A DNA stretch of 64,000 bases, from the NCBI GenBank assembly GCA_002449145.1, contig DKCG01000023.1, positions 237 through 64,236 of the forward strand, read 5' to 3'. Positions 8,343 through 26,150 of the stretch are shown one piece after another. The position numbers and the translations under genes were made by a program. The DNA is from Christensenella sp. UBA6880. Its GTDB lineage: Bacteria > Bacillota > Clostridia > Christensenellales > CAG-917. Within the stretch, counting starts at the first letter, position 1, and the number at the start of each line of letters is the position of its first letter. The notes under the pieces were generated by a model. That model ran no database searches. It had not been told where the DNA came from and was given only the letters and a program-made list of their open reading frames with translations.

Positions 8343-8684
8343 ATGGACAACTGCATTTTCTGCAAAATCGTAAAAGGCGATATCCCGTCTACGAAAGTCT
8401 ACGAAGACGACGATATGATTATCATAAAGGACTTGAATCCGCAAGCCCCCGTACATCTTTTGCTTATCCCCAAAGAGCATTACGCAAACATAATCGAGAT
8501 GACGGACTCTCAAGCGCAAACCCTCGCAAAATGCCTCAAAAAACTCTCTACGCTCACCGACGAATTGGGACTTCAAAACGGTTTCCGTCTCGTATCCAAC
8601 AAGGGTGAGGACGGTTGCCAGTCGGTCGGACATTTGCATATACATATACTTGGTGGACGAAAACTTAGTGATTCGATGTGCTAA
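8343..8684 (+). CDS. HIT-family (histidine triad) nucleotide hydrolase
   Basis: 113 aa; histidine triad HLHIHILGG. The last 5 codons and stop lie inside the 5' arm of repeat copy A. Confidence 0.9.
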   Translation: MDNCIFCKIVKGDIPSTKVYEDDDMIIIKDLNPQAPVHLLLIPKEHYANIIEMTDSQAQTLAKCLKKLSTLTDELGLQNGFRLVSNKGEDGCQSVGHLHIHILGGRKLSDSMC

Positions 8685-8798
8685 ATCGCGCCTAACTTTG
8701 TCAGAGGCACTCGCTCGACAACTCATTTACGATTAGTAAATTAGGGTTGCCGATCGAGTGCCTCTTTCGCGTTATGCATCGATTTAGCGCATCGAATC
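8670..8798 (+). repeat. Nested-hairpin repeat, copy A (type I loops, apical module 1)
   Basis: Outer stem 8670-8688/8780-8798 (18/19 bp, the mismatch is U.G); helix GCCTAAC:GTTATGC; loops TTTGTCA/TTTCGC; inner stem 8704-8717/8751-8764; apex CAACTCATTTACGATTAGTAAATTAGGGTTG. Confidence 0.85.
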
Positions 8799-8842
8799 TT
8801 GCAGATTTATATATAATCGGGTGTGGGCAGAGCCCACCCAAA

Positions 8843-8874
8843 ATTATTCATTATTAATTATTCATTATTAATTA
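8843..8874. repeat. AT-rich 14-bp tandem repeat (about 2.3 copies)
   Basis: ATTATTCATTATTA repeated head to tail between convergent genes. Confidence 0.6.
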
Positions 8875-8913
8875 AAAAAAACGCTCACCATTCGGTGAGC
8901 GCATTTTTTTTTT
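8874..8913. terminator. Bidirectional intrinsic terminator
   Basis: A-run, CGCTCACC-ATTC-GGTGAGCG, T-run; serves the + strand HIT region and the minus-strand 1524-aa gene. Confidence 0.8.
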
Positions 8914-8914
8914 A

Positions 8915-11900
8915 TTAAGCACTTATTTTTGCTTTTTTCTTCTTCGAGAAGTAGATGCCAAGTCCTGTGCCTACGCCTATCACTGCCACGCCCGGAATGA
9001 GGGTGGAAAGAAGGATAACCATAAGTTTGTTGTCCTTGACGGGCGTTGTGCCGAGAACGGTGCTATTGCCGATTTGATCGATCTTGCCGGTTGCTCTGTT
9101 GAAGTAGTAACCCGTGAAAGTGATCGTGTCGCCTTCGACTTTGACCTTGCCGAAAGTTTGAGAATCGAGCGTATGAAGAATGCTGTCGTCCTTGTTGAAT
9201 TTGTCGGTGGTCATATCGTTCTCTCTGTAGGTGTAGAACTTCGTTCCGAGTGTGCCGAGCGTGATGTAGAGAACGCCGTCGCCCGTGTAACGCACGCCGT
9301 CTTTGCTCGTCTTGTCAACGACGTTGCCGTCTTTGTCAACGAGATAAGTGGCGGTGTAGGTGTGGTCGTGGCCGCCGAATACGACGTTTACGCCTTGCTC
9401 TGCAAAGAGAGTGGTGAGTTGAGTTCTCATAGCCTTGACTTCGCCGTCGAACGCGTGCGAACCTGCGCTGTATAAACTCTTGTGCATAAGCACGAATTTC
9501 CATTTAGCGTCGGTGTTTGCAAGGTCGTTTTTGAGCCATTCGAGTTGAGTTGCGCCGAGTCCGTCGGTGGTCGCGTCGTTGGTGTCGAGAACGGTGAAGT
9601 GTGCGTTTGCGTAATCGAAGGAATAGTATTCGCCGCTTATGCCCTTAACTTCTTCGCCGACCTTTTCGGTGTAGTTGAAGTATCTGCTCATTGCGCCCGT
9701 TTTGTTCTCATGGTTGCCCGAAGCAAAGAACACGGAAGTGTTGAGAGTAAGGTCTTGATAGGTGTCGAGAGCCATGCCCCATTGATTGAAGTTCTTGCCG
9801 TTGTCGCACATATCGCCTGCGTTGAGAATGAAATCGAAGGTGTTGACTCTTTCGTCTTTAAGAAGTGCGTCGACTGCCTCGTGGCTGTTGTCGTACATAC
9901 TTTGAATCATACCTTGAATGTCAGCGATAGTGAGGAACTCGAAAGCGTCAACGTCTCTGCCGACAGCCGTCGTGAAGGTGAGGGTGTTGCCTTCATAGCC
10001 TTGAGTCTTGATGTATTCGACCAAAGAAAATTCGAGGGGTTCGCCGTCCGTTTCGTAGTTGCCGAGAATGTCGTAGTAGTAGGTTTTGCCTGCTTCGAGA
10101 CCGTTGATGGTGACGGTGTGGACGTTCCAGTATATAACGCTGTTTGCAACCGCTTTGTCGCGATCGCCGTAGATGTACGGGGTGTCATTGTCATCAACGA
10201 TTTGACCGTGAGTGAGACAGAGAAGTCCGAGGTCGATGAGCGGAATGTATTGCGGTTTGGTTTGAGTGAATACGGTCGCTTTCACGCCGTTTGAGAACTC
10301 TTTGTAAGCCGTCGTGTCGAGATAATCGGTCTTGTTCGTCGCATACGCTTTGAGTGCGGCGGATTTGGAAGTGCTTACGTCGCCGACTACGTTTCCGTTT
10401 TCGTCAAAGAGTCTGAACGTGCCGTACACGTTTTCTTCGGTGTAGAACTTAATCGTGTAGGACGTCGTAGAGTTGGTGGTATCGAAGTTTGCAGTCACGC
10501 GAGAGGGAACTCTGCCGTTGTCTTGCGTTGCTGCGTTGAACGTTGCGCCGACTTCCGAGCCTTTGTTGAGAGTGCTGAGGTAAGAGAGGCGCACGCCGTC
10601 CTTTTCATACGCTTTGTTGGGTTGATAATAGGAAGGCGCCTCGGGGTGTGCAAAGTCGTCCATATCGGGATAGACGTCGGTTGCAAACGCAATCACGATG
10701 TCGTCGGCAATGCCGCCGAGTCCCTTATAGAAACTGTCGACGAGATAACTGTCGAGGAAGTTTTGAACGATGGATATAACGTCAGGACCTTCGAGCGAGA
10801 ATCCGAGAAGTTTTGCAACGAGAGTCTTGATTGCGGGAAGCAAATCGTTGATGGTGTTAACGAGAACGAAGTTTTCCGCATCGATAGAGAAATCTGTCGG
10901 AAGTGAGAGCTCAATGCCGTAATTAGCGAGCAAATTTTTGACAAACGGCATATTCAATAAAGAGGGAAGTTGCGAGCCCAAACCTTTTTTGAGGTGAGCA
11001 AACGCCGCTTCGGTGATGTAGCCTTTGTCAACTGCGTCGCTGAAATCGAACTTATGATTGAGAACGGTTTTGAGCAACGAACCGTCTTCGGTGAAGATGG
11101 GATCGAGCAACGTCGTGAGCAATTTTTCAACGAATTTGCCGCTGACAAGTTGTTCGTGCATATCTTTGACTGCCGCCACCATGCGCAAACGATAGGTGGG
11201 GTTGTAGGGGTGTTTGAAAAGGTAATCTTTGCCTTCTTCGACCTTTTGTTCCTCACCGAAAATCGCTTTGATTGATTCTGCCGTTTCGTCGAGAGAAATC
11301 TCGATACCCATCGTGTGAGCGGTCATAATGAAGGAAGCGATGTCGGTAATCTGCATCTTGCCGCTGTTTTCGGGGTTGACTGCGGATACGATGCTGTCGT
11401 CGCCGAATTTCCAAGAAAGAACTTCGTTGACGACCGCTTTCACGAGGTCGAGTGCGGAATTGTAATTCGTGCCGTTATGGACGTATGTCACGCCTTCGAG
11501 AACGGTGTCGAGAATGTATTGAACGAGTCCGTTGAGGGCTTCGGTCTTTTCGTCGGAGTCCATATTGCCGTATTCTTTATACAATTTTTTCTCGTCGTCA
11601 TCGCCACTCTTTTTGAAGTCTGCAAACAAGGTGCTGCGGACGATTCCGAGAACCATTCCGTCGCCGCCGACCATATTCATAACCGTGTCGACGAGTCCGT
11701 CGATAGTGCTTTGATTGAGAAAATGATCGACGACTCTTTCGACAAGAATCGAATAGATTTGTTTGTTTATATAGTCGTTGTAGCCGAGCGTATTCATATC
11801 CTCGTAGTTAATCATATACGCGATATAGTCGGGGTTGGTTGCAACGACAGCCTGCCAGTTTTTCTCTGTTTTGTTGTCTTTATATGTTTTATACGCGGTT

Positions 11901-13489
11901 TGGAAAGCCTCGTCGTTAAATGCCGGTGCGGTGAACACGTTGTGGCTCGGCACTTCCTTAAACGGCGTTGCGCTGATGTCGTCGAGGCAGAATACGGAAG
12001 AAATGCAGGTTTCGCCGAGTTTGCCGTCAAAATTATATCTTTCGAGTGTGGTGTATCTTCTGGGTGAATAGTAACTTACGCAAGAACCCGTCTGAAAATC
12101 GTAGAGCGTTCTACCCTCGACGTCGGTGTAGGTCATAGCGTCGCAAACGTGCATATGTCCGGTGAAGACGTAGCGAGTGCCCATATCGAGCAAGCGTTTT
12201 GCGGTGTTTTCCCAGTTGTAAATAGTAAAGTCTTTGAGAATTTCGTCTTCCATTTCCCAGTGCGGAAGCGCATTTTGGTGGAAACAGGTGATGATTGTCT
12301 TTTCGCCGAGCGTGGGATTGGACGCGTTTTGAGATTCGCAGAATTCTTGCATCCAGTCAAGCACGCCTTCGGTGAGTCTGCCGCCGCAGAGGTGGTCGAG
12401 ACCCGTCGAACGGAACACGGTTTTACCTGCAGCGAAAGCGGCTTCGGCGTTGATTGTCGTCGATGTATCGACTGCGCCTTCTTCGGTTGCGCCGTAGAAA
12501 GTGTAGTCCGCGCCGTTTGCTTGCTTTTTGTTTTTGATAACGTTATATTCCGCTTCGTTCACTCTGACGTATGCGCCGACTTCTGCCGCCTCTCTGTCGT
12601 GAGCGTCGATAACCATAATCGCGTAATCGGTGTAGCCTTCGACTTTGATTTCCGCAGACAAGGAAAGAGCGTTGTTTACGTCGCCGATTTGATAGTATTC
12701 GTTGAGTTTGTCGGCGGTCGTTTTGGAAGCGTCCATATTGTTGACCGCTTCGAGATGTTCGTTGTAGTAGTGAATTTCAAGAGTATCCGCATTTTCGGAC
12801 GGAATATAGTTTGTCGTATACTCGCCGTACCAGTACTCTGCGGGCAAATATTCGGTGAGGTTGATTGCGCCGTCGCTTCCGTCAAGGTTTGCGTTCGGAT
12901 AGCCCAAGCCTGCAAAGACGAGAGCGAATTGCATAGTCGTCAATGCGTCGGAAACACGCTTAGAACCGTCGGTTTTCGAGTAGAGCGCACCCGACGTGTT
13001 GTAAAGGTCGTGGTTGCCCGGCGTTGCGAAAACTTGGAAGTTCTCATAACCCGATACCTTTCTTATCTCGTTTTGCATATAACGCAACGCGTTTGCAACG
13101 TCAACGAGCGCGGTGACTTCGCCGTTTTTGCTAAGGTCGCCCGAAGCGAAAACGTATTGCGGTGCTTTTCCTTTCTTCGCGTCGGCAATGTATTGCTCGA
13201 TTTGTTGTTTGAGGATCATACCGCTTTCCATAACGAGTTTGGTGTCGCCCGTCATAGAATTGTAGAAGTCGCTCGTTTTGTAGTCGGGACTTTGGATGTC
13301 TTGATAGCAATCGTCGACAGGGAAGTAGTGGATGTCGCTGAATTGACCGATCATAAGAGAGTTGGTCGGCGTCTTTTGACTGTCGGCGTTTGCAATGCCT
13401 GCAATCGAGAACGTCATAACGCTCGCAAGAACAATTGCGAGAGCGACGACGAACATCAAAGGCAGACGTCTTTGCATTTTGCTGCTCAT
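8915..13489 (-). CDS. Very large membrane-anchored extracytoplasmic protein with two calcineurin-like metallophosphoesterase domains
   Basis: 1524 aa; RBS AAGGAGGAAAT before the ATG; signal peptide (IAGIANA/DS). MPE motif set 1: SDIHY, GDLSKNG, GNHD, GHMHV. About 500 aa middle region with no recognisable motifs. Beta-rich PAP-N-like segment. MPE motif set 2: IADIQG, AGDMCDNG, GNHEN, MHKS, GGHDHTY. C-terminal TM helix plus KKKKAK. Confidence 0.85.
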   Translation of the reverse strand: MSSKMQRRLPLMFVVALAIVLASVMTFSIAGIANADSQKTPTNSLMIGQFSDIHYFPVDDCYQDIQSPDYKTSDFYNSMTGDTKLVMESGMILKQQIEQYIADAKKGKAPQYVFASGDLSKNGEVTALVDVANALRYMQNEIRKVSGYENFQVFATPGNHDLYNTSGALYSKTDGSKRVSDALTTMQFALVFAGLGYPNANLDGSDGAINLTEYLPAEYWYGEYTTNYIPSENADTLEIHYYNEHLEAVNNMDASKTTADKLNEYYQIGDVNNALSLSAEIKVEGYTDYAIMVIDAHDREAAEVGAYVRVNEAEYNVIKNKKQANGADYTFYGATEEGAVDTSTTINAEAAFAAGKTVFRSTGLDHLCGGRLTEGVLDWMQEFCESQNASNPTLGEKTIITCFHQNALPHWEMEDEILKDFTIYNWENTAKRLLDMGTRYVFTGHMHVCDAMTYTDVEGRTLYDFQTGSCVSYYSPRRYTTLERYNFDGKLGETCISSVFCLDDISATPFKEVPSHNVFTAPAFNDEAFQTAYKTYKDNKTEKNWQAVVATNPDYIAYMINYEDMNTLGYNDYINKQIYSILVERVVDHFLNQSTIDGLVDTVMNMVGGDGMVLGIVRSTLFADFKKSGDDDEKKLYKEYGNMDSDEKTEALNGLVQYILDTVLEGVTYVHNGTNYNSALDLVKAVVNEVLSWKFGDDSIVSAVNPENSGKMQITDIASFIMTAHTMGIEISLDETAESIKAIFGEEQKVEEGKDYLFKHPYNPTYRLRMVAAVKDMHEQLVSGKFVEKLLTTLLDPIFTEDGSLLKTVLNHKFDFSDAVDKGYITEAAFAHLKKGLGSQLPSLLNMPFVKNLLANYGIELSLPTDFSIDAENFVLVNTINDLLPAIKTLVAKLLGFSLEGPDVISIVQNFLDSYLVDSFYKGLGGIADDIVIAFATDVYPDMDDFAHPEAPSYYQPNKAYEKDGVRLSYLSTLNKGSEVGATFNAATQDNGRVPSRVTANFDTTNSTTSYTIKFYTEENVYGTFRLFDENGNVVGDVSTSKSAALKAYATNKTDYLDTTAYKEFSNGVKATVFTQTKPQYIPLIDLGLLCLTHGQIVDDNDTPYIYGDRDKAVANSVIYWNVHTVTINGLEAGKTYYYDILGNYETDGEPLEFSLVEYIKTQGYEGNTLTFTTAVGRDVDAFEFLTIADIQGMIQSMYDNSHEAVDALLKDERVNTFDFILNAGDMCDNGKNFNQWGMALDTYQDLTLNTSVFFASGNHENKTGAMSRYFNYTEKVGEEVKGISGEYYSFDYANAHFTVLDTNDATTDGLGATQLEWLKNDLANTDAKWKFVLMHKSLYSAGSHAFDGEVKAMRTQLTTLFAEQGVNVVFGGHDHTYTATYLVDKDGNVVDKTSKDGVRYTGDGVLYITLGTLGTKFYTYRENDMTTDKFNKDDSILHTLDSQTFGKVKVEGDTITFTGYYFNRATGKIDQIGNSTVLGTTPVKDNKLMVILLSTLIPGVAVIGVGTGLGIYFSKKKKAKISA

Positions 13490-14262: not shown

Positions 14263-14481
14263 ATGAAAAAAGTTTACAAACTCGAAGATCTCGATTGTGC
14301 AAATTGCGCCGCAAAAATGGAATGTGCCATTCAAAAACTTGACGGCGTCCAAAACGCGTCCGTCAGTTTTATGGCTCAACGTCTCACCATCGAAGCCGAT
14401 GACGCAAACTTTGACGAGATTATGAAGAAGGTTGTGAAGACTTGCCGTAAAATCGAACCCGACTGCACAATCGTTCTTTGA
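14263..14481 (+). CDS. Stand-alone heavy-metal-associated (HMA) domain protein
   Basis: 72 aa; CxxC metal site in LDCANCAAKME, ferredoxin-like HMA pattern; RBS GGAGAAACG; directly precedes the P1B ATPase. Confidence 0.85.
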   Translation: MKKVYKLEDLDCANCAAKMECAIQKLDGVQNASVSFMAQRLTIEADDANFDEIMKKVVKTCRKIEPDCTIVL

Positions 14482-14612
14482 GCGAATAACTGCGTCAGAC
14501 GCCACTGCACGACAACTCATTTACGTCAAGTAAATTAGGGTTGCCGTGCAGAAGCGTCTTCCTTGTTCTTCATCTCAAAGAACGATTGTGACCAAGTTCT
14601 TCATCCAAATAT
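14468..14612 (+). repeat. Nested-hairpin repeat, copy B (type II loops, apical module 1) plus a remnant 3' end
   Basis: Outer stem CAATCGTTCTTTGAG / CTCAAAGAACGATTG (15/15; 5' arm = T-I-V-L-stop of the HMA gene); helix GAATAAC:GTTCTTC; loops TGCGTCA/TTCCTT; inner stem GACGC..CTGCACG / CGTGCAG..GCGTC; then an orphan GTTCTTCATCCAAATAT at 14596-14612. Confidence 0.85.
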
Positions 14613-14672: not shown

Positions 14673-16619
14673 ATGAAAAAAATCAAACTATCAAGAAAAG
14701 AAAAGAAGAACCTCATTCGCATAAGCGTTGCGCTGTGTTTGTTCTTCGTTATACTCATCGTTGACAAGACGATAGGACTTGCAAAGGCTGTCGGCGGACA
14801 GTACGGCTGGCTTTTGCCGTTCTTCCTCTATTTTGCCGTGTATATGGTCATCGGATACGACGTGCTGTTCAAGGCGGCAAGAGGAATCGTACACGGTCAA
14901 GTGCTTGACGAAAACTTGCTTATGTGCGTTGCATCTCTCGGCGCGTTCGCGCTCGGCATTTACACGAGCGTGACGGGTAGAGAACAAGAAGGCTTCGACG
15001 AAGGTTGCGCTGTGCTTTTGTTCTATCAAGTCGGCGAGTTCTTCCAAAGTTACGCAACCGGCAAATCGAGAAAATCAATTTCCGCACTTATGGACATCAG
15101 ACCCGATTATGCCAACGTCAAGAGGGAAGACGGGGTCGTCGAACAAGTCGACCCGAGCGAAGTTAAGGTTGGCGACGTCATCGTGGTTTACCCCGGTGAA
15201 AAAGTGCCTCTCGACGGTATCGTGACAAGCGGTTTAACCACTCTCGACACCAAAGCACTCACGGGCGAGTCCCTTCCCAGAGAACTTTCGGAAGGTGAAG
15301 AAATTATTAGCGGTTGCGTCAATTTGACGTCGCAAATCGAAGTTGAAGTGACAAAAGTATTCTACGATTCGACGGTTTCTAAAATACTTGACCTCGTTGA
15401 GAACGCTTCGAGCAAGAAATCCAAAGCGGAAAACTTTATATCGAGATTCGCAAAATACTACACGCCGAGCGTGGTCGTGGCGGCAATTTTGCTTATGGTT
15501 ATAGGCGGCGCTGTCACGAGAGACTGGTACACTTGGATATACAGAGGTTTGAGTTTCTTGGTCGTTTCCTGTCCTTGCGCACTCGTCGTTTCCGTGCCTC
15601 TTTCCTTCTTTGCGGGTATCGGCGCGGCTTCGAGATTCGGTATTCTTATCAAGGGTAGCAACTATCTCGAACTTATGAGTAAGGCAAACGTATTCGTGTT
15701 CGACAAGACGGGAACGCTCACAAAAGGCAACTTTGCCGTAACCGATGTTGCGCCCGCCGACAGAAAAGACGAGATTCTTCGCCTTGCCGCCATTGCGGAA
15801 AACGACTCGAATCACCCGATTGCACGCTCTATCGTGGCTTGCTACAACGGTGAAATAGAGGGTGGTTATACGCTTACGAACGTAGCGGGCTTCGGCGTGC
15901 TTGCGATAAAAGACGACGACGTCATCTATTGCGGCAACGAAAAACTTATGAAATCATACGATATTCCTTACGTTGCGCACAACGGAATAGGCACGGTAGT
16001 GTACGTTGCTCACAACAAAGAATACGTCGGTTCGCTTCTCATAAGCGACGAAATCAAGGACGAATCCGTATCCGCCGTCGGCGAACTCAACAAAATGGGT
16101 TGCAAAACGGTTATGCTCACGGGCGACAACGAGGCTATCGCTTCCGACGTGGCTGGAAAAATCGGACTTTCGGCATACAAAGCGTCCTTGCTTCCGCAAA
16201 ATAAAGTTGAAAACGTCGAGCAAATGCTTGCCGAAAAGAAGAAAGGCGACGTGCTGTGCTTTGTCGGTGACGGCATAAACGACGCACCAGTGCTTATGCG
16301 TTCGGATATAGGCATCGCAATGGGCGGCGTGGGCAGCGACGCGGCAATCGAAGCGAGCGACGTAGTGCTTATGCAAGACGATTTGACGGGTATATCCACT
16401 GCAAAACGTATTTCCAAAAAGACGATGAGAGTGGTGTACGAAAACATCGTCGGCTCTCTTGCCGTAAAACTTCTTATTATGGCGTTGAGCGCGACGGGCG
16501 TTCTCGGCAGCGCGACGATGTGGATTGCGGTTTGCGGCGACGTCGGCGTGGCAATAGTTGCGATTCTCAACGCAATGCGCGTCAACAAAGGCTACAAAAC
16601 GCTTATCAAACAAAAGTAA
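14673..16619 (+). CDS. Heavy-metal translocating P1B-type ATPase (CadA/ZntA-like)
   Basis: 648 aa; CPC transmembrane metal motif (SCPCALVVS), phosphorylation site DKTGTLT, hinge GDGINDAP; no N-terminal HMA domain (encoded separately upstream). Confidence 0.93.
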   Translation: MKKIKLSRKEKKNLIRISVALCLFFVILIVDKTIGLAKAVGGQYGWLLPFFLYFAVYMVIGYDVLFKAARGIVHGQVLDENLLMCVASLGAFALGIYTSVTGREQEGFDEGCAVLLFYQVGEFFQSYATGKSRKSISALMDIRPDYANVKREDGVVEQVDPSEVKVGDVIVVYPGEKVPLDGIVTSGLTTLDTKALTGESLPRELSEGEEIISGCVNLTSQIEVEVTKVFYDSTVSKILDLVENASSKKSKAENFISRFAKYYTPSVVVAAILLMVIGGAVTRDWYTWIYRGLSFLVVSCPCALVVSVPLSFFAGIGAASRFGILIKGSNYLELMSKANVFVFDKTGTLTKGNFAVTDVAPADRKDEILRLAAIAENDSNHPIARSIVACYNGEIEGGYTLTNVAGFGVLAIKDDDVIYCGNEKLMKSYDIPYVAHNGIGTVVYVAHNKEYVGSLLISDEIKDESVSAVGELNKMGCKTVMLTGDNEAIASDVAGKIGLSAYKASLLPQNKVENVEQMLAEKKKGDVLCFVGDGINDAPVLMRSDIGIAMGGVGSDAAIEASDVVLMQDDLTGISTAKRISKKTMRVVYENIVGSLAVKLLIMALSATGVLGSATMWIAVCGDVGVAIVAILNAMRVNKGYKTLIKQK

Positions 16620-16769: not shown

Positions 16770-17237
16770 TTATTTTTCTTTGAGTTTGTATCCGCAATTC
16801 GGGCACTCGGTATCGTTCGGCGATATTTTTGCAAAACAGCAGGGACATTCGTCGTATTCGGGAAGATTAACATAATCGAAATCCTCATCTGTATCGTTTT
16901 TATTAAGTATTTCAATTTGTTTCAATATGTTTGCCTCTTTTGGTTGTTTATCACTTAATTTTGATTGTTGAATCATTAATGTTTTGTCGGTATTTGCTTT
17001 AATTACATAAATATTATGACAAGTTGTAACTGCCATTTTCCCCAAAATATAAAATACTGCAATGGATATTCCACCTAATGGAATAATAATCAAGAAAAGC
17101 CACCACATATTGTAAACAATACTTGAAATTACGCCGAGCAGCACAACCATTATACTGAGAATAATTGTTGCCACTGTGATAATTTTTGAGCCTGCGCTTA
17201 TATAACTATAAGAGTCTAAGTCGTTTCGTTGTCTCAT
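16770..17237 (-). CDS. Membrane protein with C-terminal zinc ribbon
   Basis: 155 aa from ATG 17237 (RBS GGAGGTAAAAAA); 2-3 hydrophobic helices, then a tail ending CPCC-x11-CPNC. Confidence 0.6.
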   Translation of the reverse strand: MRQRNDLDSYSYISAGSKIITVATIILSIMVVLLGVISSIVYNMWWLFLIIIPLGGISIAVFYILGKMAVTTCHNIYVIKANTDKTLMIQQSKLSDKQPKEANILKQIEILNKNDTDEDFDYVNLPEYDECPCCFAKISPNDTECPNCGYKLKEK

Positions 17238-17478: not shown

Positions 17479-17556
17479 ATGCATTTTATGGCGCTTATGC
17501 TTGCGATACTCGGATTGTTCGGTATGTTGGGATTCTTCGGCGGACTTTGGTTTTGA
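17479..17556 (+). CDS. Candidate 25-aa hydrophobic micro-protein
   Basis: AGAGAGGTGG SD 6 nt before the ATG; translation MHFMALMLAILGLFGMLGFFGGLWF. Below the ORF-track length cut-off; no homology assessed. Confidence 0.35.
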   Translation: MHFMALMLAILGLFGMLGFFGGLWF

Positions 17557-17640
17557 TTGTGGTGATACGATAAGTCAAATGCTTCCGTTTAAGTTAAGTA
17601 AAAACGTCCGTTCGATTCCCTAAATGCACTTATAAAAACG

Positions 17641-17670
17641 AAAAAGCACATCATTGAGATGTGCTTTTTT
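17641..17670. terminator. Bidirectional intrinsic terminator (ends tRNA-Glu on the minus strand)
   Basis: AAAAAGCACATC-ATTG-AGATGTGCTTTTTT. Confidence 0.8.
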
Positions 17671-17674
17671 CATT

Positions 17675-17750
17675 TGGTACCCCCATAGGGAATCGAACCC
17701 TAGTTTCCGCCGTGAGAGGGCGACGTCTTGAACCGCTTGACCATGAGGGC
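17675..17750 (-). tRNA. tRNA-Glu (anticodon CUC), CCA encoded
   Basis: The reverse complement folds as a 76-nt cloverleaf: acceptor GCCCTCA/TGGGGGT, D arm GTC/GAC, anticodon stem TCGCC/GGCGG with loop CT-CTC-AC, T arm TAGGG-TTCGATT-CCCTA, then ACCA. Closely resembles Firmicute tRNA-Glu. Confidence 0.85.
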
Positions 17751-17963: not shown

Positions 17964-20024
17964 ATGGATCCTAAATATCAAAGTTTATTTACCCCTTGGA
18001 AGATAGGCAAATGCGAGATCAAAAACCGCATCGTGTTGACTTCTATGGGCGGAACTTCAATATTTGGCTGGATGGAACCGCATCATTTCGACAAAGAAGC
18101 CGCAAACTTCTTGCTCGATAGGGCAAAGAACAACGTCGGACTTATTTTGCCGGGTATCGCGCCCATCAGAAACGTTATCGGCGGAAACTGGCTCTACAAG
18201 AGCAAGAGTTCGTTCAAACACCTCAAACCATTTATGGAAGAAATCCACAAGACGGGCGCAAAGATGTTCGTGCAACTCACCGCAGGTTTCGGACGTTCTT
18301 TTGCAATCACCAAAATGATGGAAATGCTTGCCACAAACAAAGTTTTGGGTGCAATCGCAAAGCCGTTTATCAACATCGATCAACTCACGATGAGCGCGAG
18401 TCCCAATCCCAACAGATGGAGTGACAAAGTGCCGTCCAGAGCAATGACGATCGACGAGATTCACGAGTTTATCAAAGCGTTCGGCAAAACCGCAAAAATG
18501 TGCAAAGACGCAGGCGTAGACGGCGTTGAAATCCACGCAGTTCACGAAGGATATTTGCTCGACCAATTCACGATGAAATACACCAACCAACGTACCGACG
18601 AGTACGGCGGTTCAATCGAAAACAGATACCGTTTTCCCATCGAAATCGTCAAGGAAATCAAGAGAGTATGCGGCGAGGATTATCCCGTTTCGTTGAGATA
18701 TTCCGTCGTATCCAAGACCAAAGGTTTCCGCCAAGGCGCACTTCCCGGTGAAGACTACGTCGAAGTCGGTCGCGATATGGAAGAAAGCAAAATCGCAGCC
18801 AAAATGCTTCAAGACGCAGGCTACGATATGCTCAACTCGGACAACGGTACGTACGACGCGTGGTACTGGGCGCATCCGCCGGTATATATGCCGCAAAACT
18901 GCAACCTCGCAGATTGCGAAGAACTCAAAAAAGCAGTCGATATTCCCGTCGTTTGCGCAGGTCGTATGACCCCCGAAGCAGGCGCAAAGGCTATTGCGGA
19001 AGGCAAAATCGACGGTATGGGCGTCGCTCGTCAATTCCTCACCGATCCCGAATGGATCACCAAACTCATCCAAGGCAGAGAAGACGACATTATGCCTTGC
19101 ATTTGCTGCCATAACGCTTGCTTCAATATGGCACACTACAACGGCGTTGCAAACGATCAGGATTTGTCCGACACTGCAGGTATGGCTCGTTGCGCACTCA
19201 ATCCGCACACGATGCAATCCAAGAAATACAAGATCGTTCCCGCAACAAAATCCAAGAAGATTGCCGTCATCGGCGGTGGTATCGGCGGTATGGAAGTTGC
19301 AAGAGTCGCAACCTTGCGCGGCCATAAAGTCACCATTTACGAGAAATCCGACGATCTCGGCGGCATTTTCGTAGCGGCGGCAGCACCGTCTTTCAAAGAG
19401 AAAGATAAAGAACTTATCGAGTGGTACAAAAAGCAAATCAAAGATTTGGGTATCGAAGTGAAGTACGGCGTCAAAGTTGACGACGTGAACAAACTCGACG
19501 CAGACGAAGTCGTCGTTGCAACGGGCGCAGTTGCAAGACGTTTCAACGTCCCCGGCGTCGAAAAGACCGTCGAAGCGTGCGATTTCTTGCTCGGAAACAA
19601 AGAAGTCGGCGACAACGTCGTCATCATCGGCGGTGGCTTGACAGGTTGTGAAATCGCATACGAACTGCAACTTCAAGGCAAACATCCCGCAATCGTCGAG
19701 ATGAAGAACGACCTTATCGCCGTCAAGGGCGTATGCCTTGCAAACTCGTCCTATTTGAGAGAATACTTTGCGCTTCACAAAGTGCCCGTGTATCTCGAAA
19801 CCAAACTCGTTTCTGTCACCGACAACGGCGTTAAAGTTGCTTCGCTCAAAGAAAACGGCAAAGAATTTGAGATTCCCGCGGATTCCGTCATTATGTCCGT
19901 CGGTTACAGACCCGCACCCGTCGCGCAAGAGGGCAAACACGTCCACCTCGTCGGCGACAGCGCAAAAGTAGGCAATCTTCGCACTGTAATTTGGGGTGCT
20001 TGGGATGTTGCAATGAAACTGTAA
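17964..20024 (+). CDS. 2-enoate reductase / 2,4-dienoyl-CoA reductase family flavoprotein (OYE domain + Fe-S + FAD/NAD(P) domain)
   Basis: 686 aa; OYE-like TIM barrel N-half, Cys cluster CICCHNAC...C, Rossmann motifs VIGGGIGG and IIGGGLTG; RBS AAGGAGAAAA. Confidence 0.9.
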   Translation: MDPKYQSLFTPWKIGKCEIKNRIVLTSMGGTSIFGWMEPHHFDKEAANFLLDRAKNNVGLILPGIAPIRNVIGGNWLYKSKSSFKHLKPFMEEIHKTGAKMFVQLTAGFGRSFAITKMMEMLATNKVLGAIAKPFINIDQLTMSASPNPNRWSDKVPSRAMTIDEIHEFIKAFGKTAKMCKDAGVDGVEIHAVHEGYLLDQFTMKYTNQRTDEYGGSIENRYRFPIEIVKEIKRVCGEDYPVSLRYSVVSKTKGFRQGALPGEDYVEVGRDMEESKIAAKMLQDAGYDMLNSDNGTYDAWYWAHPPVYMPQNCNLADCEELKKAVDIPVVCAGRMTPEAGAKAIAEGKIDGMGVARQFLTDPEWITKLIQGREDDIMPCICCHNACFNMAHYNGVANDQDLSDTAGMARCALNPHTMQSKKYKIVPATKSKKIAVIGGGIGGMEVARVATLRGHKVTIYEKSDDLGGIFVAAAAPSFKEKDKELIEWYKKQIKDLGIEVKYGVKVDDVNKLDADEVVVATGAVARRFNVPGVEKTVEACDFLLGNKEVGDNVVIIGGGLTGCEIAYELQLQGKHPAIVEMKNDLIAVKGVCLANSSYLREYFALHKVPVYLETKLVSVTDNGVKVASLKENGKEFEIPADSVIMSVGYRPAPVAQEGKHVHLVGDSAKVGNLRTVIWGAWDVAMKL

Positions 20025-20037
20025 GTGTAAAGCGTTA

Positions 20038-20157
20038 AGCGCGCTATTTGGCGTGATACTTCGTCAGTCACATCTTGCCTCAAAATCGTGTACGTCTATG
20101 TACACTGGGTTTTGATTCAAGATGTGCCTTTCTTGTCTGACGCTCAAATATCGCGAT
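20038..20157 (+). repeat. Nested-hairpin repeat, copy D1 (type II ends, apical module 2)
   Basis: Ends CGCGCTATTTG / CAAATATCGCG; inner stem CACATCTTG / CAAGATGTG; apex AAAATCGTGTACGTCTATGTACACTGGGTTTT; starts 14 nt after the stop of the upstream gene. Confidence 0.8.
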
Positions 20158-20175
20158 TAAAATCTCTTGCACATT

Positions 20176-20274
20176 GGGCGAACAACGGTGTTAATGCCGT
20201 CCTTCCGTCAACTCATTTACGAATAGTAAATTAGGGTTCGGACGGTTCTTCCTTGTTCTTCATCATCTAAATAT
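20176..20274 (+). repeat. Nested-hairpin repeat, copy D2 (type II loops, apical module 1)
   Basis: GAACAAC:GTTCTTC helix, loops GGTGTTA/TTCCTT, inner stem CCGTCC/GGACGG, apex CAACTCATTTACGAATAGTAAATTAGGGTT. Confidence 0.8.
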
Positions 20275-20367: not shown

Positions 20368-21594
20368 ATGAAAAAAACGACTATGCAAAAATATGCTCGT
20401 CTTATCGCTCAAAAAGGCGTGAACGTGCAGAAAAATCAAGAAGTAATTATCCGCGCAGGACTCGACCAACCCGAATTTGTAAAAATGGTTGCAGAGGAAT
20501 GCTATCGCAAGGGCGCAAAGAAAGTTACGGTCGAGTGGGATTATCAACCGCTCACGAAAGTCAATTATCGTTATCGTTCGCTCAAATCTCTTTCCACGAT
20601 GGAAGAGTGGCAAGTCGAAAAACTCAAACATCAGGTTGACGCGCTTCCCGCGGTCATCTATATCGAATCGGAAGACCCCGACGGACTTAAAGGCGTGGAC
20701 CAATCAAAAGTCGCAAAGGCTCAACGTGCGATTTATCCCATCGTAAAACCTCTTCGCGACAAAATGGACAACAAGTATCAATGGTGTATCGCCGCAGTAC
20801 CGGGCGAAGCGTGGGCAAAAAAAGTGTTTCCGAACGAAAGAGTCGGTAAGGCTGTCGAGAAACTTTGGAACGCCATTCTTTACACGTCCAGAGCGGACGG
20901 CAACGACCCCGTTCAGGCTTGGAACGAGCATAACGCCGACCTCAAGGCAAGATACGATTATCTCAATTCGCTCGGCATAGAATCCTTGCATTATACGTCA
21001 TCTAACGGCACTAATTTCACCGTAGGACTCATTCCCGACGCACTCTTTCTCGGCGGAAGCGAGTTTACGCTCGGCGGTGTAGAGTTCAATCCTAACATTC
21101 CGAGCGAGGAAGTTTTTACGTCGCCTATGAAGGGCAAAGCGGAAGGTATCGTCTATGCAACTCGTCCGCTTTCCTATCGCGGCGAACTCATCGAGAATTT
21201 TTCCGTGCGATTTGAAAACGGCAAAGCGGTCGAAGTACACGCCGAAAAGGGTGAGGAACTTCTCAAACAAATGATTTCTATGGACGAAAACGCCGCATAT
21301 CTCGGTGAATGTGCTCTCGTTCCTTACGATTCGCCCATTCGCAATTCCGAAATAACCTTCCTCAACACCTTGTTCGACGAGAACGCTTGTTGTCACCTCG
21401 CACTCGGTCGCGGTTTTGAGAATTGTATCAAAGATTACGACAAATACACTCTCGAAGAATGTCGTCAAAAAGGCATCAACGATTCCATCATACACGTAGA
21501 CTTTATGATCGGCTCGCAAGATCTTGACGTGACTGCGCATACGAGAGAGGGGGTGGATGTAGCCATTTTCCGCAACGGCAACTGGGCATTTTGA
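20368..21594 (+). CDS. Aminopeptidase, M29 (AmpS/PepS) family
   Basis: 408 aa, full-length resemblance to thermophilic metalloaminopeptidase family proteins; the stop codon lies inside the 5' arm of repeat E1. Confidence 0.88.
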   Translation: MKKTTMQKYARLIAQKGVNVQKNQEVIIRAGLDQPEFVKMVAEECYRKGAKKVTVEWDYQPLTKVNYRYRSLKSLSTMEEWQVEKLKHQVDALPAVIYIESEDPDGLKGVDQSKVAKAQRAIYPIVKPLRDKMDNKYQWCIAAVPGEAWAKKVFPNERVGKAVEKLWNAILYTSRADGNDPVQAWNEHNADLKARYDYLNSLGIESLHYTSSNGTNFTVGLIPDALFLGGSEFTLGGVEFNPNIPSEEVFTSPMKGKAEGIVYATRPLSYRGELIENFSVRFENGKAVEVHAEKGEELLKQMISMDENAAYLGECALVPYDSPIRNSEITFLNTLFDENACCHLALGRGFENCIKDYDKYTLEECRQKGINDSIIHVDFMIGSQDLDVTAHTREGVDVAIFRNGNWAF

Positions 21595-21720
21595 GAGGCT
21601 GCCAAATAGCACCTAACTTTGTCAGAGACACCCACTCATCAATTCGTGTACGTCTATGTACACTAGAATTGCTGTTTGGGTGTCTCTTTCGCGTTATGTA
21701 TCTATTTGGCAGCCTCTCAA
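21591..21720 (+). repeat. Nested-hairpin repeat, copy E1 (type I loops, apical module 2)
   Basis: Outer stem TTGAGAGGCTGCCAAATAG / CTATTTGGCAGCCTCTCAA (19/19, includes the TGA stop); helix ACCTAAC:GTTATGT; loops TTTGTCA/TTTCGC; inner stem GAGACACCCA/TGGGTGTCTC; apex AATTCGTGTACGTCTATGTACACTAGAATT. Confidence 0.88.
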
Positions 21721-21787
21721 GCGCGCTATTTTTGGCGAATAACTGTGTCAAAGACCTTTTGCTTGTTCTTCATTCAAATATCGCGCT
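21720..21787 (+). repeat. Nested-hairpin repeat, copy E2 (minimal type II, no inner stem or apex)
   Basis: AGCGCGCTATTTTTGG-CGAATAACTGTGTCA-AAGACC-TTTTGCTTGTTCTTCAT-TCAAATATCGCGCT. Confidence 0.75.
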
Positions 21788-21810
21788 TAAAATATATCGG
21801 CGATAGCAGT

Positions 21811-21911
21811 CTCTCAAGCGCGCTATTTTTGGCGTGAGTGACAAACGGTCGCTGTGGCAATGGCAACAGACAAGTTTGCCTATTGCCAAGAGCCACGCTT
21901 GTTTGTCACTC
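21811..21911 (+). repeat. Degenerate relative of the repeat family (copy E3)
   Basis: Begins with the same 24-nt CTCTCAAGCGCGCTATTTTTGGCG as 21714-21737; 11-bp stem GAGTGACAAAC / GTTTGTCACTC encloses a second imperfect hairpin GGCAATGGCAA / TTGCCTATTGCC. Confidence 0.6.
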
Positions 21912-22155
21912 TGCTAACCGCGCAAGCCCTCTTTACTCTCAAAATAAGACGGGCAAGAACTCAAACCGCAATTCCGTGCGAGTGCTTGCTTGGTGAATGC
22001 GTGCTACGCACGCAGGCGGATAAATAAAAATATCTTGCTAACCGCTTGCGCCATTGGCGCAATACCAAACAGATAATCTTGCGGAATTGTGGCTTGATTA
22101 TTTATCCATCTTGTTTTGATAGCAAAGATTCTCTGTGCGGTAGAAAGATTAAAAT

Positions 22156-22213: not shown

Positions 22214-22239
22214 AATCGGCATTCGGCGCAAAGTATATC

Positions 22240-22272
22240 AAAAAACAGTCGCTCGATTGAGCGACTGTTTTT
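22240..22272. terminator. Bidirectional intrinsic terminator
   Basis: AAAAAA-CAGTCGCTC-GATT-GAGCGACTG-TTTTT. Confidence 0.75.
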
Positions 22273-22473
22273 CTCTTGATTGTCCCGCACCGCCGTGTGA
22301 TGCCATTTTATAAACCCGCCGTATAGCAGGGTGGGTAAAGACTGCCGTGCAGTTTCTGTCTTCCACTGAATTGCGAGGCCTGACATCTCTGCATATTGGT
22401 CGGACGCGTCATCCCGTATAAAATTTGTGGTTCAAAATAGAGCATCATCACAAACATAGCAGGAATCTTTCCT
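22240..22473 (-). ncRNA. Candidate orphan transcript (about 230 nt) of unknown class
   Basis: Bounded by a good minus-strand promoter (22480-22508) and the 22240-22272 terminator; GC-rich core; possible closing helices UGUGAUG/CAUCACA and AUUUUAUA/UAUAAAAU; no convincing SD-led ORF. Confidence 0.3.
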
Positions 22474-22479
22474 ATGTTC

Positions 22480-22508
22480 AATATACCATATACCGTTTTA
22501 TATTGCAA
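22480..22508 (-). promoter_or_regulatory. sigma-A type promoter (minus strand) for the orphan transcript
   Basis: Minus strand: TTGCAA, 17 nt, TATATT, with TGG immediately upstream of the -10 (extended -10 like). Confidence 0.5.
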
Positions 22509-22805
22509 TACCCAATTTTTGTCTGTGCGTTTCTTTTAATAAGTTTAGGGTGGCAGAATTTTGCCGCTCGGCATATTATATCCTCAAATCGTAAATCGTA
22601 CTTCGAGATTGCAAACTTGTGTCGATAATATAAAAAGTATTTTAAAATTCGGCAAATATGCGAATACTTTTGAGCAAAAATCGGACAAATTTACAATCGA
22701 AATACGTTTTACATATTATTTAAATGCAATTTTTGGGGTATGTATTGATAAAATCGCTGTTGTATGCTAAAATATGTAAAGTAATAAATCTATAGGGGTT
22801 ATTGT

Positions 22806-24527: not shown

Positions 24528-24536
24528 GGTTGAAAA

Positions 24537-25886
24537 ATGATAAACGCGAACGAAGTGGTTGAAACCAACAAAATGATATCTTTCGAACACCTTGACGTGC
24601 GCACGGTCACGATGGGAATATCCCTTCTCGACTGCGTGAGCGACGATATTGACGTTCTTTGCCAAAGGGTACACGACAAAATCGTGAGCAAGGCGAAAAA
24701 TCTCGTCAAGGTCTGCGACGACATCGCAAACGAAATAGGCATACCTATCGTCAACAAGCGAATCAGCGTGACGCCGGTAAGCATAATCACGGCTCGCACC
24801 GGCGATTCGATAAAGGTTGCAAAAGTCCTTGACGAGTGCGCCGACGAAATCGGCGTGGACTTTGTGGGCGGATATACCGCGCTCGTACACAAGGGTATGA
24901 CCGAGTACGAAAAGAAGTTTATCGAATCCATACCCGCCGCGCTCGCTTGCACGAAAAAAGTATGTTCGAGCGTAAACATCGGCTCGACCAAAGCGGGCAT
25001 AAATATGGACGCGGTTGCCCTTATGGGCAAAATTATCAAAGAAACCGCATATCTGACGAGGGAAAACGACAGCATAGGCTGTGCAAAACTCGTCGTGTTT
25101 GCAAACGCAGTCGAGGATAATCCGTTTATGGCGGGTGCGTTCCACGGCGTAGGCGAAAACGATTGCGTCATAAACGTAGGCGTAAGCGGACCGGGCGTAG
25201 TGGAAGAAGCGTTGAAACACGTCAAAGGCGAAAACTTGACCGTCGTTGCCGAAACCATAAAGAAAGTCGCTTACAAAATCACGAGAGTAGGGCAACTCGT
25301 CGCGCAAGAAGCGTCCAAACGCCTTGACGCTCATTTCGGAATCATAGATTTGAGCCTTGCTCCCACGCCCGTAAAAGGGGACAGCGTTGCGCATATTCTC
25401 GAAGAAATCGGCGTTGACGTAGTTGGCGGCTACGGAACGACCGCCGCTCTCGCATTGCTCAACGACGCCGTGAAAAAGGGCGGTATTATGGCTTCGTCGC
25501 ACGTCGGCGGACTCAGCGGCGCGTTTATTCCCGTCAGCGAGGACATCGGAATGATAGAATCCGCACAAAAAGGTGTTCTAACCCTCGAAAAACTCGAAGC
25601 GATGACCGCAATTTGTTCCGTCGGACTCGATATGATTGCAATCCCCGGCGACACTTCTGCCGACGTTATTTCCGCAATGATTGCAGACGAATCCGCAATC
25701 GGCGTAGTCAACAACAAAACCACCGCCGTCCGTGTAATTCCCGTTTACGGCAAAAATTCGGGCAGCGTATCTTTCGGCGGACTTCTCGGCACAGCACCCA
25801 TTATGCCTATCAATCAAACTTCGCCGTCGAGACTAATTGAGCGTGGGGGGAGAGTTCCTGCCCCTATATGGTCCAACAAAAATTAA
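24537..25886 (+). CDS. UPF0210 (DUF711) family protein
   Basis: 449 aa; conserved ACT + UPF0210 gene pair; repeat C1 starts 6 nt after the stop. Confidence 0.85.
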
Positions 25887-25891
25887 ACGCC

Positions 25892-26000
25892 GCTATTTGG
25901 CGAATAACTGCGTCAACGCCCATCGTCTGTCAACTCATTTACGCCTTGTAAATTAGGGTTGCCATCCGATGGGTGTTTCCTTGTTCTTCATCCAAATATC
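25892..26000 (+). repeat. Nested-hairpin repeat, copy C1 (type II, apical module 1)
   Basis: Ends GCTATTTGG / CCAAATATC; CGAATAACTGCGTCA ... TTCCTTGTTCTTCAT; inner stem CGCCCATCG / CGATGGGTG with one G.U (only when the + strand folds); apex CAACTCATTTACGCCTTGTAAATTAGGGTTG. Confidence 0.85.
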
Positions 26001-26024
26001 AACGTTTAAGAAATGTGTGAGTAT

Positions 26025-26150
26025 TCGCCTAACTTTGGACGCGATTGACGCAAGCGTAGCAATCGCTATTCCGTCACTTCGTTCCTTACAGCACCCCTTG
26101 ACTGTCAACTCATTTACGATTAGTAAATTAGGGTTGCCGTATATCGGCGT
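26025..26150 (+). repeat. Degenerate type I fragment plus a separate apical-module-1 hairpin (copy C2)
   Basis: CGCCTAACTTTGGAC, stem GCGATTG/CAATCGC, then CAACTCATTTACGATTAGTAAATTAGGGTTG at 26106-26136. Confidence 0.65.

Follow-up and report, generated by a model that had tools for sequence, protein, structure and literature searches.

A gene-following family of nested palindromes at stop codons of uncultured gut Clostridia, probably a mobile DNA element of REPIN/BIME/MITE-like kind

Why should long, nested hairpins of one and the same design stand behind one gene after another in an ordinary stretch of a bacterial chromosome, and is it an RNA or a DNA that their conserved architecture serves? 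The question is raised by contig DKCG01000023.1 of Christensenella sp. UBA6880, of which we analyzed 64 kb (positions 237 to 64,236 of the forward strand; hereafter, the window). The original prediction, made from the letters of the window alone, had described nine copies of a modular hairpin element at gene 3' ends, either a structured RNA or a MITE-like (miniature inverted-repeat transposable element-like) repeat. As we will argue below, the family is real and highly non-random, and it is neither a known RNA nor an integron. We consider it probable, at roughly 60%, that it is a clade-specific, non-autonomous, mobile family of DNA palindromes, comparable to REPINs, to bacterial interspersed mosaic elements (BIMEs) and to MITEs, residing in the 3' untranslated regions (UTRs) of ordinary chromosomal genes. 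The traits that distinguish it are its sense orientation with respect to genes, a start that falls at the stop codon, a layout like that of the attC sites of integrons, the mirroring of flanking sequence together with conversion of one arm by the other, and its dynamism at the level of strains.

The apical motif of the element, TCATTTACGNNNNGTAAATTAGGGTT, occurs five times in the window, always on the + strand, where none is expected (0 in 100 shuffles), and each of the nine stretches originally proposed folds into a long hairpin of −16 to −72 kcal/mol. A covariance model trained on 97 related copies (R1), run over the entire 64 kb with filters off, identifies five copies that are full and three that are partial, every one of them on the + strand within 8.6–26.2 kb, with nothing significant in the remainder of the window; its minus-strand matches, which are palindromic echoes, are far weaker, at 19–66 bits (for example, 66 versus 141). 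The scan thus confirms both the uniform orientation and the confinement to one region that had been proposed. It also reduces the census, since the proposed seventh copy (21811–21911) is not a member: this stretch has no covariance-model match and consists of a left-arm fragment, CAAGCGCGCTATTTTTGGCG (21811–21840, +), fused to a different dispersed repeat at 21848–22030. Successive copies are spaced by 5.8, 5.5, 1.4 and 4.2 kb, with core genes and a tRNA gene in between, and the genes ahead of them encode a HinT histidine-triad protein, a 72-aa HMA metal-binding protein, an Fe-S flavoenzyme, an M29 aminopeptidase and a UPF0210/DUF711 protein.

The individual copies illustrate how closely the element is joined to these genes. 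Copy 1 (8668–8804, +; 141 bits, fold −70.9 kcal/mol, with the palindrome proper at 8670–8798) holds the HinT stop codon TAA (8682–8684) inside its left 'TAAATCG' box, and its outer stem, GATTCGATGTGC/GCGCATCGAATC, mirrors the final four HinT codons. Copy 2 (14462–14598, +; 128 bits) is placed by the positions of the open reading frames (ORFs) between the 72-aa HMA ORF (14263–14481), whose stop TGA lies inside the left box, and a P-type ATPase gene (14673–16619); in its right arm, CTCAAAGAACGATTGTG, the native end of the HMA coding sequence recurs in inverted form. An orphan right-arm fragment, GTTCTTCATCCAAATAT (14590–14612, +), recognized by its sequence, follows it, and the same fragment is found between tandem copies in L103 (related loci are numbered with the letter L). 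Downstream of the 686-aa Fe-S flavoenzyme-like gene (stop 20022–20024) stands an array of two, in which copy 3 (20031–20168, +; 76 bits) has the variant box pair CGTGATAC/GTCTGACG and an alternative apical module, AATCGTGTACGTCTATGTACAC, and the distal copy 4 (20178–20264, +; 54 bits, model positions 21–113) is partial, without the outer left arm. Copy 5 (21589–21726, +; 118 bits), full again, combines ACCTAAC/GTTATGT boxes with the alternative apical module, and contains the stop TGA (21592–21594) of the M29 peptidase gene (Pfam Peptidase_M29) within its outer stem TTGAGAGGCTGCC/GGCAGCCTCTCAA. The short copy 6 behind it (21729–21781, +; 27 bits, E = 6e-4) retains outer stem, boxes and internal loop around an inner stem and apex reduced to a few bases, and is probably a deletion derivative. 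Finally, full copy 8 (25880–26016, +; 139 bits) starts at the native TAA (25884–25886) of the UPF0210/DUF711 gene (NCBIfam PRK05313), followed by the composite, partial copy 9 (26025–26150, +; 46 bits for the apical part, 26099–26143, only). Copy 9 consists of a left box GCCTAAC (26027–26033), a foreign module of 51 nt, itself a hairpin, within the left internal loop (26038–26088), and the inner-left stem with the apical module (26091–26143); the right arm is absent.

In the alignment of 97 copies the element appears as an imperfect palindrome of about 125–135 bp with the consensus TAAAAC-nGCGC-[7-mer, e.g. TATTTAG]-C-GAATAAC-TnCGnCA-[11-nt stem]-nn-GT-CAACTC-ATTTAC-loop5-GTAAAT-TA-GGGTTG-CCn-nn-[stem']-TTTCTT-GTTCTTC-AT-[7-mer']-nCGCn-GTTTTA. 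RNAalifold places 47 pairs on this alignment, with changes on both sides in 34 of the 47. The named structure has standard pairs in 95.1% of its 4549 cells, compared with 75.3% on shuffling and 37–44% with partners slid, and contains 899 compensatory cells as against 272 shuffled (the observed value was reached in 0 of 500 shuffles). The proposed retention of pairing in stems of varying sequence therefore extends to the family, and the anatomy proposed from the window (outer stem, 7-bp AAC/GTT helix with a pyrimidine–pyrimidine mismatch, asymmetric internal loop, variable inner stem, two apical modules) is visible both there and in the alignment.

The helices are kept to different degrees and in different ways. 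AAC and GTT are retained in 83–92 of the 97 copies, and the box helix covaries (one of its pairs is A-U in 71 copies, C-G in 12 and U-A in 7); GCCTAAC fits the pattern RYYYAAC, but the commonest boxes, GAATAAC and GTTCTTC, do not fit RYYYAAC/GTTRRRY. Beyond the boxes helix 1 runs for 17 further pairs, with 92.4% of cells paired, and each arm holds a small GCGC-N6/7-GCG palindrome of its own. Inward of the boxes lies an unpaired but sequence-conserved spacer of 6–7 nt per side (alignment columns 33–38 and 106–110), and then the inner stem, an uninterrupted 11-bp helix (94.9% of cells paired); bulges are confined to the region outside the boxes and to the apical hairpin. In many copies the sequence of the left internal loop is T-N-CGTC-A or T-N-TGTC-A (TTCGTCA, TGCGTCA, TTTGTCA), in others the loop contains CGGC, and in 96 of 97 copies an A-T pair follows immediately. 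In the same proportion of copies (96/97) the loops are conserved in sequence while the stems vary. An invariant U·G pair and a bulge make the two strands of the apical stem unequal, and the apical module covaries in relatives, from ATTTAC/GTAAAT to ATGTAC/GTACAT and from CAAC/GTTG to CTCG/CGAG. Outer stem, box helix, inner stem and apex all reassort between copies.

How widely is this structure distributed? Species-representative genomes scanned with the 20 fixed bases of the apical motif reveal it on at least 114 contigs, from about 20 metagenome-assembled genomes (MAGs) of uncultured gut Clostridia labelled Clostridiales, Christensenella sp., Firmicutes CAG:238 and similar. With R1 and an nhmmer profile, the motif-bearing loci and the window yield 169 non-overlapping copies, 129 of them full-length, the latter counted in loci with the element that total about 0.9 Mb. 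Among metagenome relatives, the element stands at the UPF0210 locus in three only, all of at least 90% protein identity, and it is present neither in a relative of 83% identity nor in 76 more distant ones, which argues that the family is young or restricted to its clade. A phage or plasmid origin was rejected, as no match was found among IMG/VR viral contigs, INPHARED phages or PLSDB plasmids. A known RNA family was likewise rejected: at gathering thresholds an Rfam 15 scan of the window returns the tRNA only, and E-value scans over the copies give chance-level matches to miRNA-type hairpins, in agreement with the initial remark that no named RNA family was recognizable.

The family also has a regular position relative to genes. 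Upstream sequence is long enough for a test in 125 full copies; in 104 of them (83%) an ORF of 80 aa or more, co-oriented with the element, has its stop codon in the left tip, and in 73 of these 104 (70% of the anchored copies) that stop is the terminal TAA of the palindrome itself; the anchored stops comprise 90 TAA, 10 TGA and 4 TAG. At the right end, by comparison, a converging ORF is present in only 11 of 97 testable copies, and the set of copies defined by the exact motif gives the same picture of anchoring. The location of the family at gene 3' ends, co-oriented with the upstream genes and MITE-like in character, is thus supported well beyond the window. The stop codon is native to the gene: the UPF0210 C-terminus (...NKN*) is identical in species with and without the element, and the HMA ORF has 72 aa in either case. 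The direction of the copies goes with that of the gene and not with replication, given that the element strand has a positive GC skew in no more than 91 of 129 loci and that adjacent copies lie on the same strand in 30 cases, convergently in 2 and divergently in none, with convergent gene pairs having a copy for each gene. Array members nearest the gene are better than distal ones in 23 of 30 cases, and the left arm has been lost from the distal copy in 11 of 30 and from the proximal copy in none. We note in passing a metagenomic HinT variant (P0013, 133 aa) in which the stop TAA has become GAA and the ORF extends 20 codons into the element (...SDSMCEIAPNFVRGTRSTTHLRLVN); this example shows, at the level of sequence, that the element can donate C-terminal tails.

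The copies turn over, and they show signs of mobility. Eight pairs of non-orthologous copies are 91–93% identical over the whole element and lie between random flanks, the identity running from TAAAAC, or from a point one base within the stop codon, to GTTTTA; furthermore, a 17-nt outer stem, AAAACCGTCTGATTGAG, stands behind two different genes of one lineage. Gene ends that are orthologous, on the other hand, can differ entirely in what they carry. The window and loci L115–117 share about 94% amino acid identity at UPF0210 and about 80–87% nucleotide identity across shared genes, yet the same gene ends bear different elements: at the M29 gene the two sequences diverge from the stop codon on (TGA versus TAA), and behind the flavoenzyme gene two element types are common to both but differ in order and state of decay. 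Differences between the members of 23 orthologous copy pairs are bimodal. One class shows no compensatory and 0–3 single changes, and the other 6–14 compensatory changes along with many loop changes, even though the 90-nt upstream flank is 96–100% identical; the covariation thus mostly reflects replacement by another subfamily member rather than stepwise compensation in place.

The same dynamics are apparent among close strains. In ten strains with an identical HinT protein, the spacer to the next gene ranges from 299 to 1254 nt and is composed of varied combinations of the element with other repeats. In ten strains of a sister species, the gap between the HMA and ATPase genes is 37 nt without an element in two, 181 nt with one element in seven, and 386 nt with a truncated element and another repeat in one. 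A search of relatives for empty sites, suggested together with the original prediction, therefore succeeds as far as element-free HMA alleles are concerned, although it gave no clean insertion junction (see below). The strains without an element also have a separate 72-aa HMA ORF, and we accordingly discarded the idea that copy 2 had split an HMA–ATPase fusion gene; apparent orthologs in L024, L044 and L055 were set aside as an empty-site test, their common flank being itself repetitive. One short-read contig from the same species as the window is broken, on either side, at the repeat arrays. Taken together, these sequence comparisons show copies gained, lost, replaced wholesale and stacked into arrays, even among strains of one species.

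What keeps the two arms complementary through such turnover? Across 82 different left flanks, the 10 nt to the left of the conserved core are complementary to the 10 nt on its right at 7.1 positions on average, compared with 3.8 when right flanks are swapped. (The extent of palindromes is given here by ungapped mirror counts; minimum-free-energy folding of 245-nt windows over-extended them with spurious outer pairs.) The mirrored sequence can be coding: besides the HinT codons at copy 1, it includes 14 nt of the HMA end at copy 2, 22 nt in L088 and 14 nt in L094. At the copy 2 site, the element-free HMA allele of the sister species has no palindrome, and since the HMA end is native, the right arm of copy 2 must have arisen as an inverted copy of the left flank. 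The corresponding search for HinT homologs returned relatives of at least 93% identity only, all ending in ...SD(S/T)MC, from which the native status of that tail cannot be inferred. The outer stem is thus often the gene's own 3' end in inverted copy, a point absent from the original prediction. We also considered that the outer stem might always be a pre-existing terminator stem with the element in its loop, which is only partly tenable in view of the HMA allele without a palindrome and of identical outer stems at unrelated loci. A copy in L074 (5239–5375) is, as judged from its sequence, a direct example of templated copying from arm to arm: its right arm is the exact complement of the left over 34 nt, the TTTCTT-GTTCTTC-AT motifs, internal loop and box mismatch are erased, and it scores nearly equally on both strands. 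The mirrored flanks and the conversion seen in L074 point to snap-back synthesis on a folded strand as the putative source of this symmetry.

The strand on which the fold operates bears directly on the choice between RNA and DNA. Over the variable pairs of the 97 copies there are 3097 Watson–Crick pairs, 64 G·T, 94 A·C and 130 other mismatches; with G·T rarer than A·C, wobble pairs are tolerated no more than the mismatches that would wobble on the opposite strand. Stability favors the reverse-complement strand in 92 of 97 copies under DNA parameters and in 69 of 97 under RNA parameters. These numbers run counter to the proposed fold at the RNA level or on the + strand, and the observation that two stem mismatches in the window are G·U only on that strand does not generalize. 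Nor is gradual compensatory evolution supported, of which a switch between boxes (GCCTAAC:GTTATGC versus ACCTAAC:GTTATGT) had been read as a sign: orthologs are either near-identical or replaced wholesale, and arms are copied from one another as in L074, so that most of the apparent covariation is subfamily turnover combined with DNA-templated symmetry. Overall, the pairing behavior looks like a DNA-level property rather than the result of selection on an RNA.

Among described systems, the closest functional analogues are, by analogy, repetitive extragenic palindromic (REP) elements and BIMEs, REPINs, and the transposase-less CGTC-tagged REPs. Like REP/BIME/REPIN sequences (PMC3116915), the family is a high-copy extragenic palindrome of about 100–130 nt whose two inverted arms form one long hairpin; it lies downstream of genes, often close to stop codons, in clusters and mosaics, and is made up of subfamily populations that persist at orthologous sites. 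Two inverted REP-like arms in a hairpin of about 100 nt, in many extragenic copies, are thus present in it. Unlike REPINs, however, the family has no GTAG tag, its arms carry the AAC/GTT box helix and a conserved asymmetric internal loop, it is strictly sense to the gene with its start coinciding with the stop codon, its right arms mirror locus-specific flanks, and no REP-associated tyrosine transposase (RAYT) was found for it in the roughly 40 kb sampled from each genome. The host belongs to the Firmicutes, for which a survey of REPs reports none (PMC3733652). With CGTC-tagged REPs, which include the Neisseria dRS3/NIME arrays and the Rickettsia RPEs (PMC3733652), it shares, in many copies, an unpaired CGTC/TGTC 5' of a stem starting with A-T, the lack of a known associated transposase, and hypervariable intergenic mosaics. 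Those REPs are described with stems of 8–9 bp, loops of 4–5 nt and a CCA tail (PMC3733652), whereas the family stem has 11 bp and is nested between two outer helices and a further conserved hairpin inside it, and the tag varies, with CGGC in many copies. An origin as IS200/IS605 palindrome-associated elements (PATEs) or as RAYT-dependent REPINs remains a candidate, but a less favored one, there being no homolog in the sample of 1.7 Mb (about 40 kb per genome) and one large palindrome instead of two direct hairpin ends.

Bacterial MITEs, such as Correia/CREE, ERIC/IRU, pneumococcal BOX and RUP, are small non-autonomous intergenic repeats that are co-transcribed and form stable hairpins; BOX is modular (A-B-C), and Correia ends are flanked by TA. 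Compared with these, the present family has no demonstrable direct target duplication, and to our knowledge anchoring at stop codons and mirrored flanks have not been described for any of the four.

Our preferred explanation, a mobile DNA palindrome, can be stated as a working mechanism. Spread at the DNA level may proceed by an enzyme that recognizes the structure and acts on the folded single strand, or by repair of breaks at fragile palindromes templated by ectopic copies, the second of which would also explain chimeras joined at conserved modules and the renewal of gene-proximal copies. Snap-back synthesis, an intramolecular template switch that is reportedly known from quasi-palindrome mutagenesis (Ripley; the Lovett laboratory), would maintain and extend symmetry by copying the left arm and its flank into the right side, and the palindrome could grow outward until it reaches sequence under selection. 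Internal loops and mismatches might survive as recognition features of a mobilizing protein, or because perfect long palindromes are destroyed. Being co-transcribed with the upstream gene, the element would probably act as a 3'-end hairpin in the manner of REPs, a stabilizer of mRNA or an obstacle next to the terminating ribosome, and we propose that such a role could account for the bias toward sense orientation.

Several observations weigh against a mobile DNA palindrome. Above all, neither route of spread explains by itself why orientation follows the gene; this is the main unexplained fact, and a purely selfish DNA model leaves the 83% versus 11% difference between the ends unaccounted for, since, read inward, both ends begin TAAAAC. 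It keeps alive an RNA-level role or a mechanism coupled to transcription. The exact start at the stop codon in 70% of anchored copies is equally unexplained by a DNA-only model, and the conservation of loops in 96 of 97 copies suggests that function could lie at the RNA level. No mobilizing enzyme was found: tblastn searches of the element-bearing loci with IS608 TnpA, an E. coli RAYT and IntI1 gave nothing beyond two weak tyrosine-recombinase-like fragments, in a 1.7-Mb sample covering only about 40 kb per genome, in which a single-copy gene such as a RAYT would probably be missed; in the window, ORFs scanned up to 51 kb include no transposase or integrase. Nor was a long element bounded by two arms found. 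Left and right arms 0.3–3.5 kb apart enclose no transposase, the candidates being GAPDH and DegV genes, and the search for an autonomous parent thus produced false positives only. Finally, neither a clean target-site duplication nor a clean empty-versus-filled junction was obtained. The ends, TA-AAAC...GTTT-TA, are compatible with duplication of TA, although TA is self-complementary, the informative flanks are inverted rather than direct (TGA...TCA at 21592/21718), and the single empty-versus-filled comparison, at HMA, shows about 18 nt replaced and divergence of the spacer instead of a clean insertion.

These difficulties give weight to a cis-acting structured RNA in the 3' UTR, which we regard as unlikely, if less so than the other alternatives. 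On this explanation a nested hairpin in the sense strand, its loops bound by a protein or an RNase, would enclose the stop codon in its base, the structure would interact with the terminating ribosome, selection on the RNA would keep its pairing, and mRNA stability, translation termination or attenuation might be controlled. It accounts directly for an orientation that follows the gene and not replication, for the fixed register of the stop codon, for conserved loops amid variable stems, for an apex whose U·G pair and bulge make the strands unequal, and for positions upstream of canonical terminators, where the elements must be transcribed. REPs within 15 nt of a stop codon are also reported, in a passage of PMC12306157 that cites Liang et al. 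2015, to stall ribosomes; by analogy, stalling suggests itself as a plausible consequence of the family's position. The same explanation is at odds with the lack of enrichment of G·U over A·C, the greater stability of the antisense strand, the wholesale replacement of stems between orthologs with no stepwise compensation, the presence or absence of the element at the same gene among strains, the decay of copies into half-elements and arrays, the lack of an Rfam match, and the placement of copy 2 inside an operon.

Another alternative starts from a resemblance, not remarked on in the original prediction, to attC sites, whose description (PMC4889954) includes paired AAC...GTT boxes, an unpaired spacer, a second stem, a variable terminal structure, a fixed orientation 3' of an ORF, a structure more conserved than its sequence and a favored bottom strand. 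That the copies are attC-like sites, a CALIN-like set (cluster of attC sites lacking integron-integrases) whose folded, probably bottom, strand is read by a tyrosine recombinase of integron or other type, would fit this layout, the RYYYAAC form of GCCTAAC, the sites after ORFs with the AAC box first as in cassettes, the better folding of the bottom strand, and the permuted copy order and gene-proximal renewal reminiscent of cassette shuffling. We nevertheless think it very improbable, and the attC-like layout is a resemblance, not membership. Pairing extends for 20 bp or more beyond the boxes, with flanks mirroring each other, which is unexpected for chimeric attC sites; the second stem lacks the extrahelical bases that set the choice of strand in attC sites; the commonest boxes are off consensus; and in place of sites less than 4 kb apart around cassettes without promoters, usually close to intI, copies are scattered genome-wide behind core genes on at least 114 contigs, in the window at spacings of 5.5–5.8 kb with a tRNA gene between. 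No IntI-like ORF was found in 1.7 Mb, and complete integrons have not been found in Firmicutes genomes (PMC4889954). On the grounds of core-gene neighbors, dispersal, pairing beyond the boxes and the missing IntI, an integron cassette array was rejected. A related proposal, itself improbable but somewhat less so, is that the copies are substrates of an undescribed structure-specific single-stranded DNA recombination or transposition system outside integrons that reads the box helix, unpaired spacer and apical hairpin of the attC-like fold, with precise sense placement at the 3' boundary of coding sequences; placement would perhaps be coupled to transcription or translation termination, and duplications of the target flank would be inverted, not direct. 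That the copies are simply the clade's native intrinsic terminators, or insertions leaving these intact, in which A-tract, GC clamp and T-tract would make up the terminator and the core an enlarged loop, is scarcely more credible than attC-like sites. The outer clamp is indeed 70% GC, with AAAA at the left and TTTT at the right edge each in 41 of 97 copies; the bona fide terminator at 26225–26249 resembles the outer shell of the element and overlaps a stop codon; in the element-free ortholog L118 the stop codon is spanned by a small hairpin; and most copies in the window stand at operon ends. Yet TTTT is absent from 56 of the 97 copies, T-runs follow none of the copies in the window, where canonical terminators stand apart from them further downstream, copy 2 is intra-operonic with no hairpin there in the element-free allele, and outer stems travel with the element to new loci.

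The downstream terminators can be localized. A canonical bidirectional intrinsic terminator follows copy 1 at 8881–8902, and another, AAAACGCGCA..TGCGCGTTTT, follows copies 8 and 9 at 26225–26249, where it overlaps the stop codon of a convergent RqcH-like gene (ORF end 26235). The elements are thus residents of the 3' UTR and in general not terminators themselves.

If the family is a mobile DNA palindrome, its significance is in part one of contrast: REP/REPIN elements are textbook features of Proteobacteria and hardly documented in Firmicutes, and here a rich and active family is found in very common human-gut Clostridia (one HinT variant is present on at least 1000 contigs). The family renders intergenic regions hypervariable among strains and causes short-read assemblies to break. 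It also provides a natural setting in which to ask how long palindromes arise, stay symmetric and are tolerated in bacterial chromosomes, what mobilizes REP-like elements that lack a transposase, and why such elements gather at stop codons, and its layout bears on the unsolved question of where the attC sites of integrons come from. In practical terms, copies can serve as strain markers, and they are a source of annotation errors where ORFs run into an element.

Other intergenic repeats share this territory. The repeat fused to the left-arm fragment, at 21848–22030, represents a second kind of dispersed noncoding repeat, about 180 nt long and without relation to the hairpin family, with matches in 16 loci (among them L022, L026, L037, L084, L046, L032, L114 and L196); a same-species short-read contig, L195, breaks inside it, starting at window position 21966. 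The 51-nt hairpin module of copy 9, GACGCGATTGAC..CAATCGCTATTCCGTCACTTCGTTCCTTA, has a fixed insertion point, TTTG^, in the left internal loop of several elements, occurring at this position at 26038–26088 of the window and in L003, L004, L006, L010, L049, L106 and L110; it occurs also in L086. It is in addition part of a larger, hairpin-rich noncoding mosaic repeat of about 0.5–0.7 kb, pieces of which are found in 32 loci (for example, L115 11600–12350 and L039 about 3500–4130). In L115 this mosaic lies between UPF0210 and rqcH, where it is absent from the window, and it has no Rfam match and no conserved ORF that we could see. Yet another kind of intergenic repeat stands 3' of UPF0210 in L118 (about 4190–4330) and L117 (about 8200–8330), where four to six tandem hairpins of about 20–25 nt each are framed by ATGA/GATATCA-like spacers.

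The remainder of the window is core chromosome, including hrcA-grpE-dnaK-dnaJ-prmA-rsmE-mtaB, tig-clpP-clpX, the dcw cell-wall cluster and spoIIGA-sigE-sigG. Converging on the HinT gene is a gene for a 1524-aa protein (8915–13489, −) that is conserved in every strain examined; its only matches are weak ones to calcineurin-like phosphoesterases, one of them an anti-phage phosphoesterase model (E = 1.6e-5). Around the tRNA gene (17678–17750, −; 58.5 bits) the sequence is rearranged between the window (16772–17668) and L115 (1793–3272), with about 600 nt in the window, including a 171-aa ORF without a Pfam match, in place of about 1.2 kb of other sequence in L115. Finally, 22278–22468 (−) gives a sub-threshold match to 6S/SsrS RNA (35 bits, where the gathering score is 46.4; E = 2e-4) adjoining a strong bidirectional terminator at 22240–22273. 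The surrounding segment, 22236–22537, is the most conserved stretch between the window and L115–117, at 90.5% nucleotide identity compared with 80–87% for the flanking genes, and 22278–22468 is probably the 6S RNA gene of this lineage.

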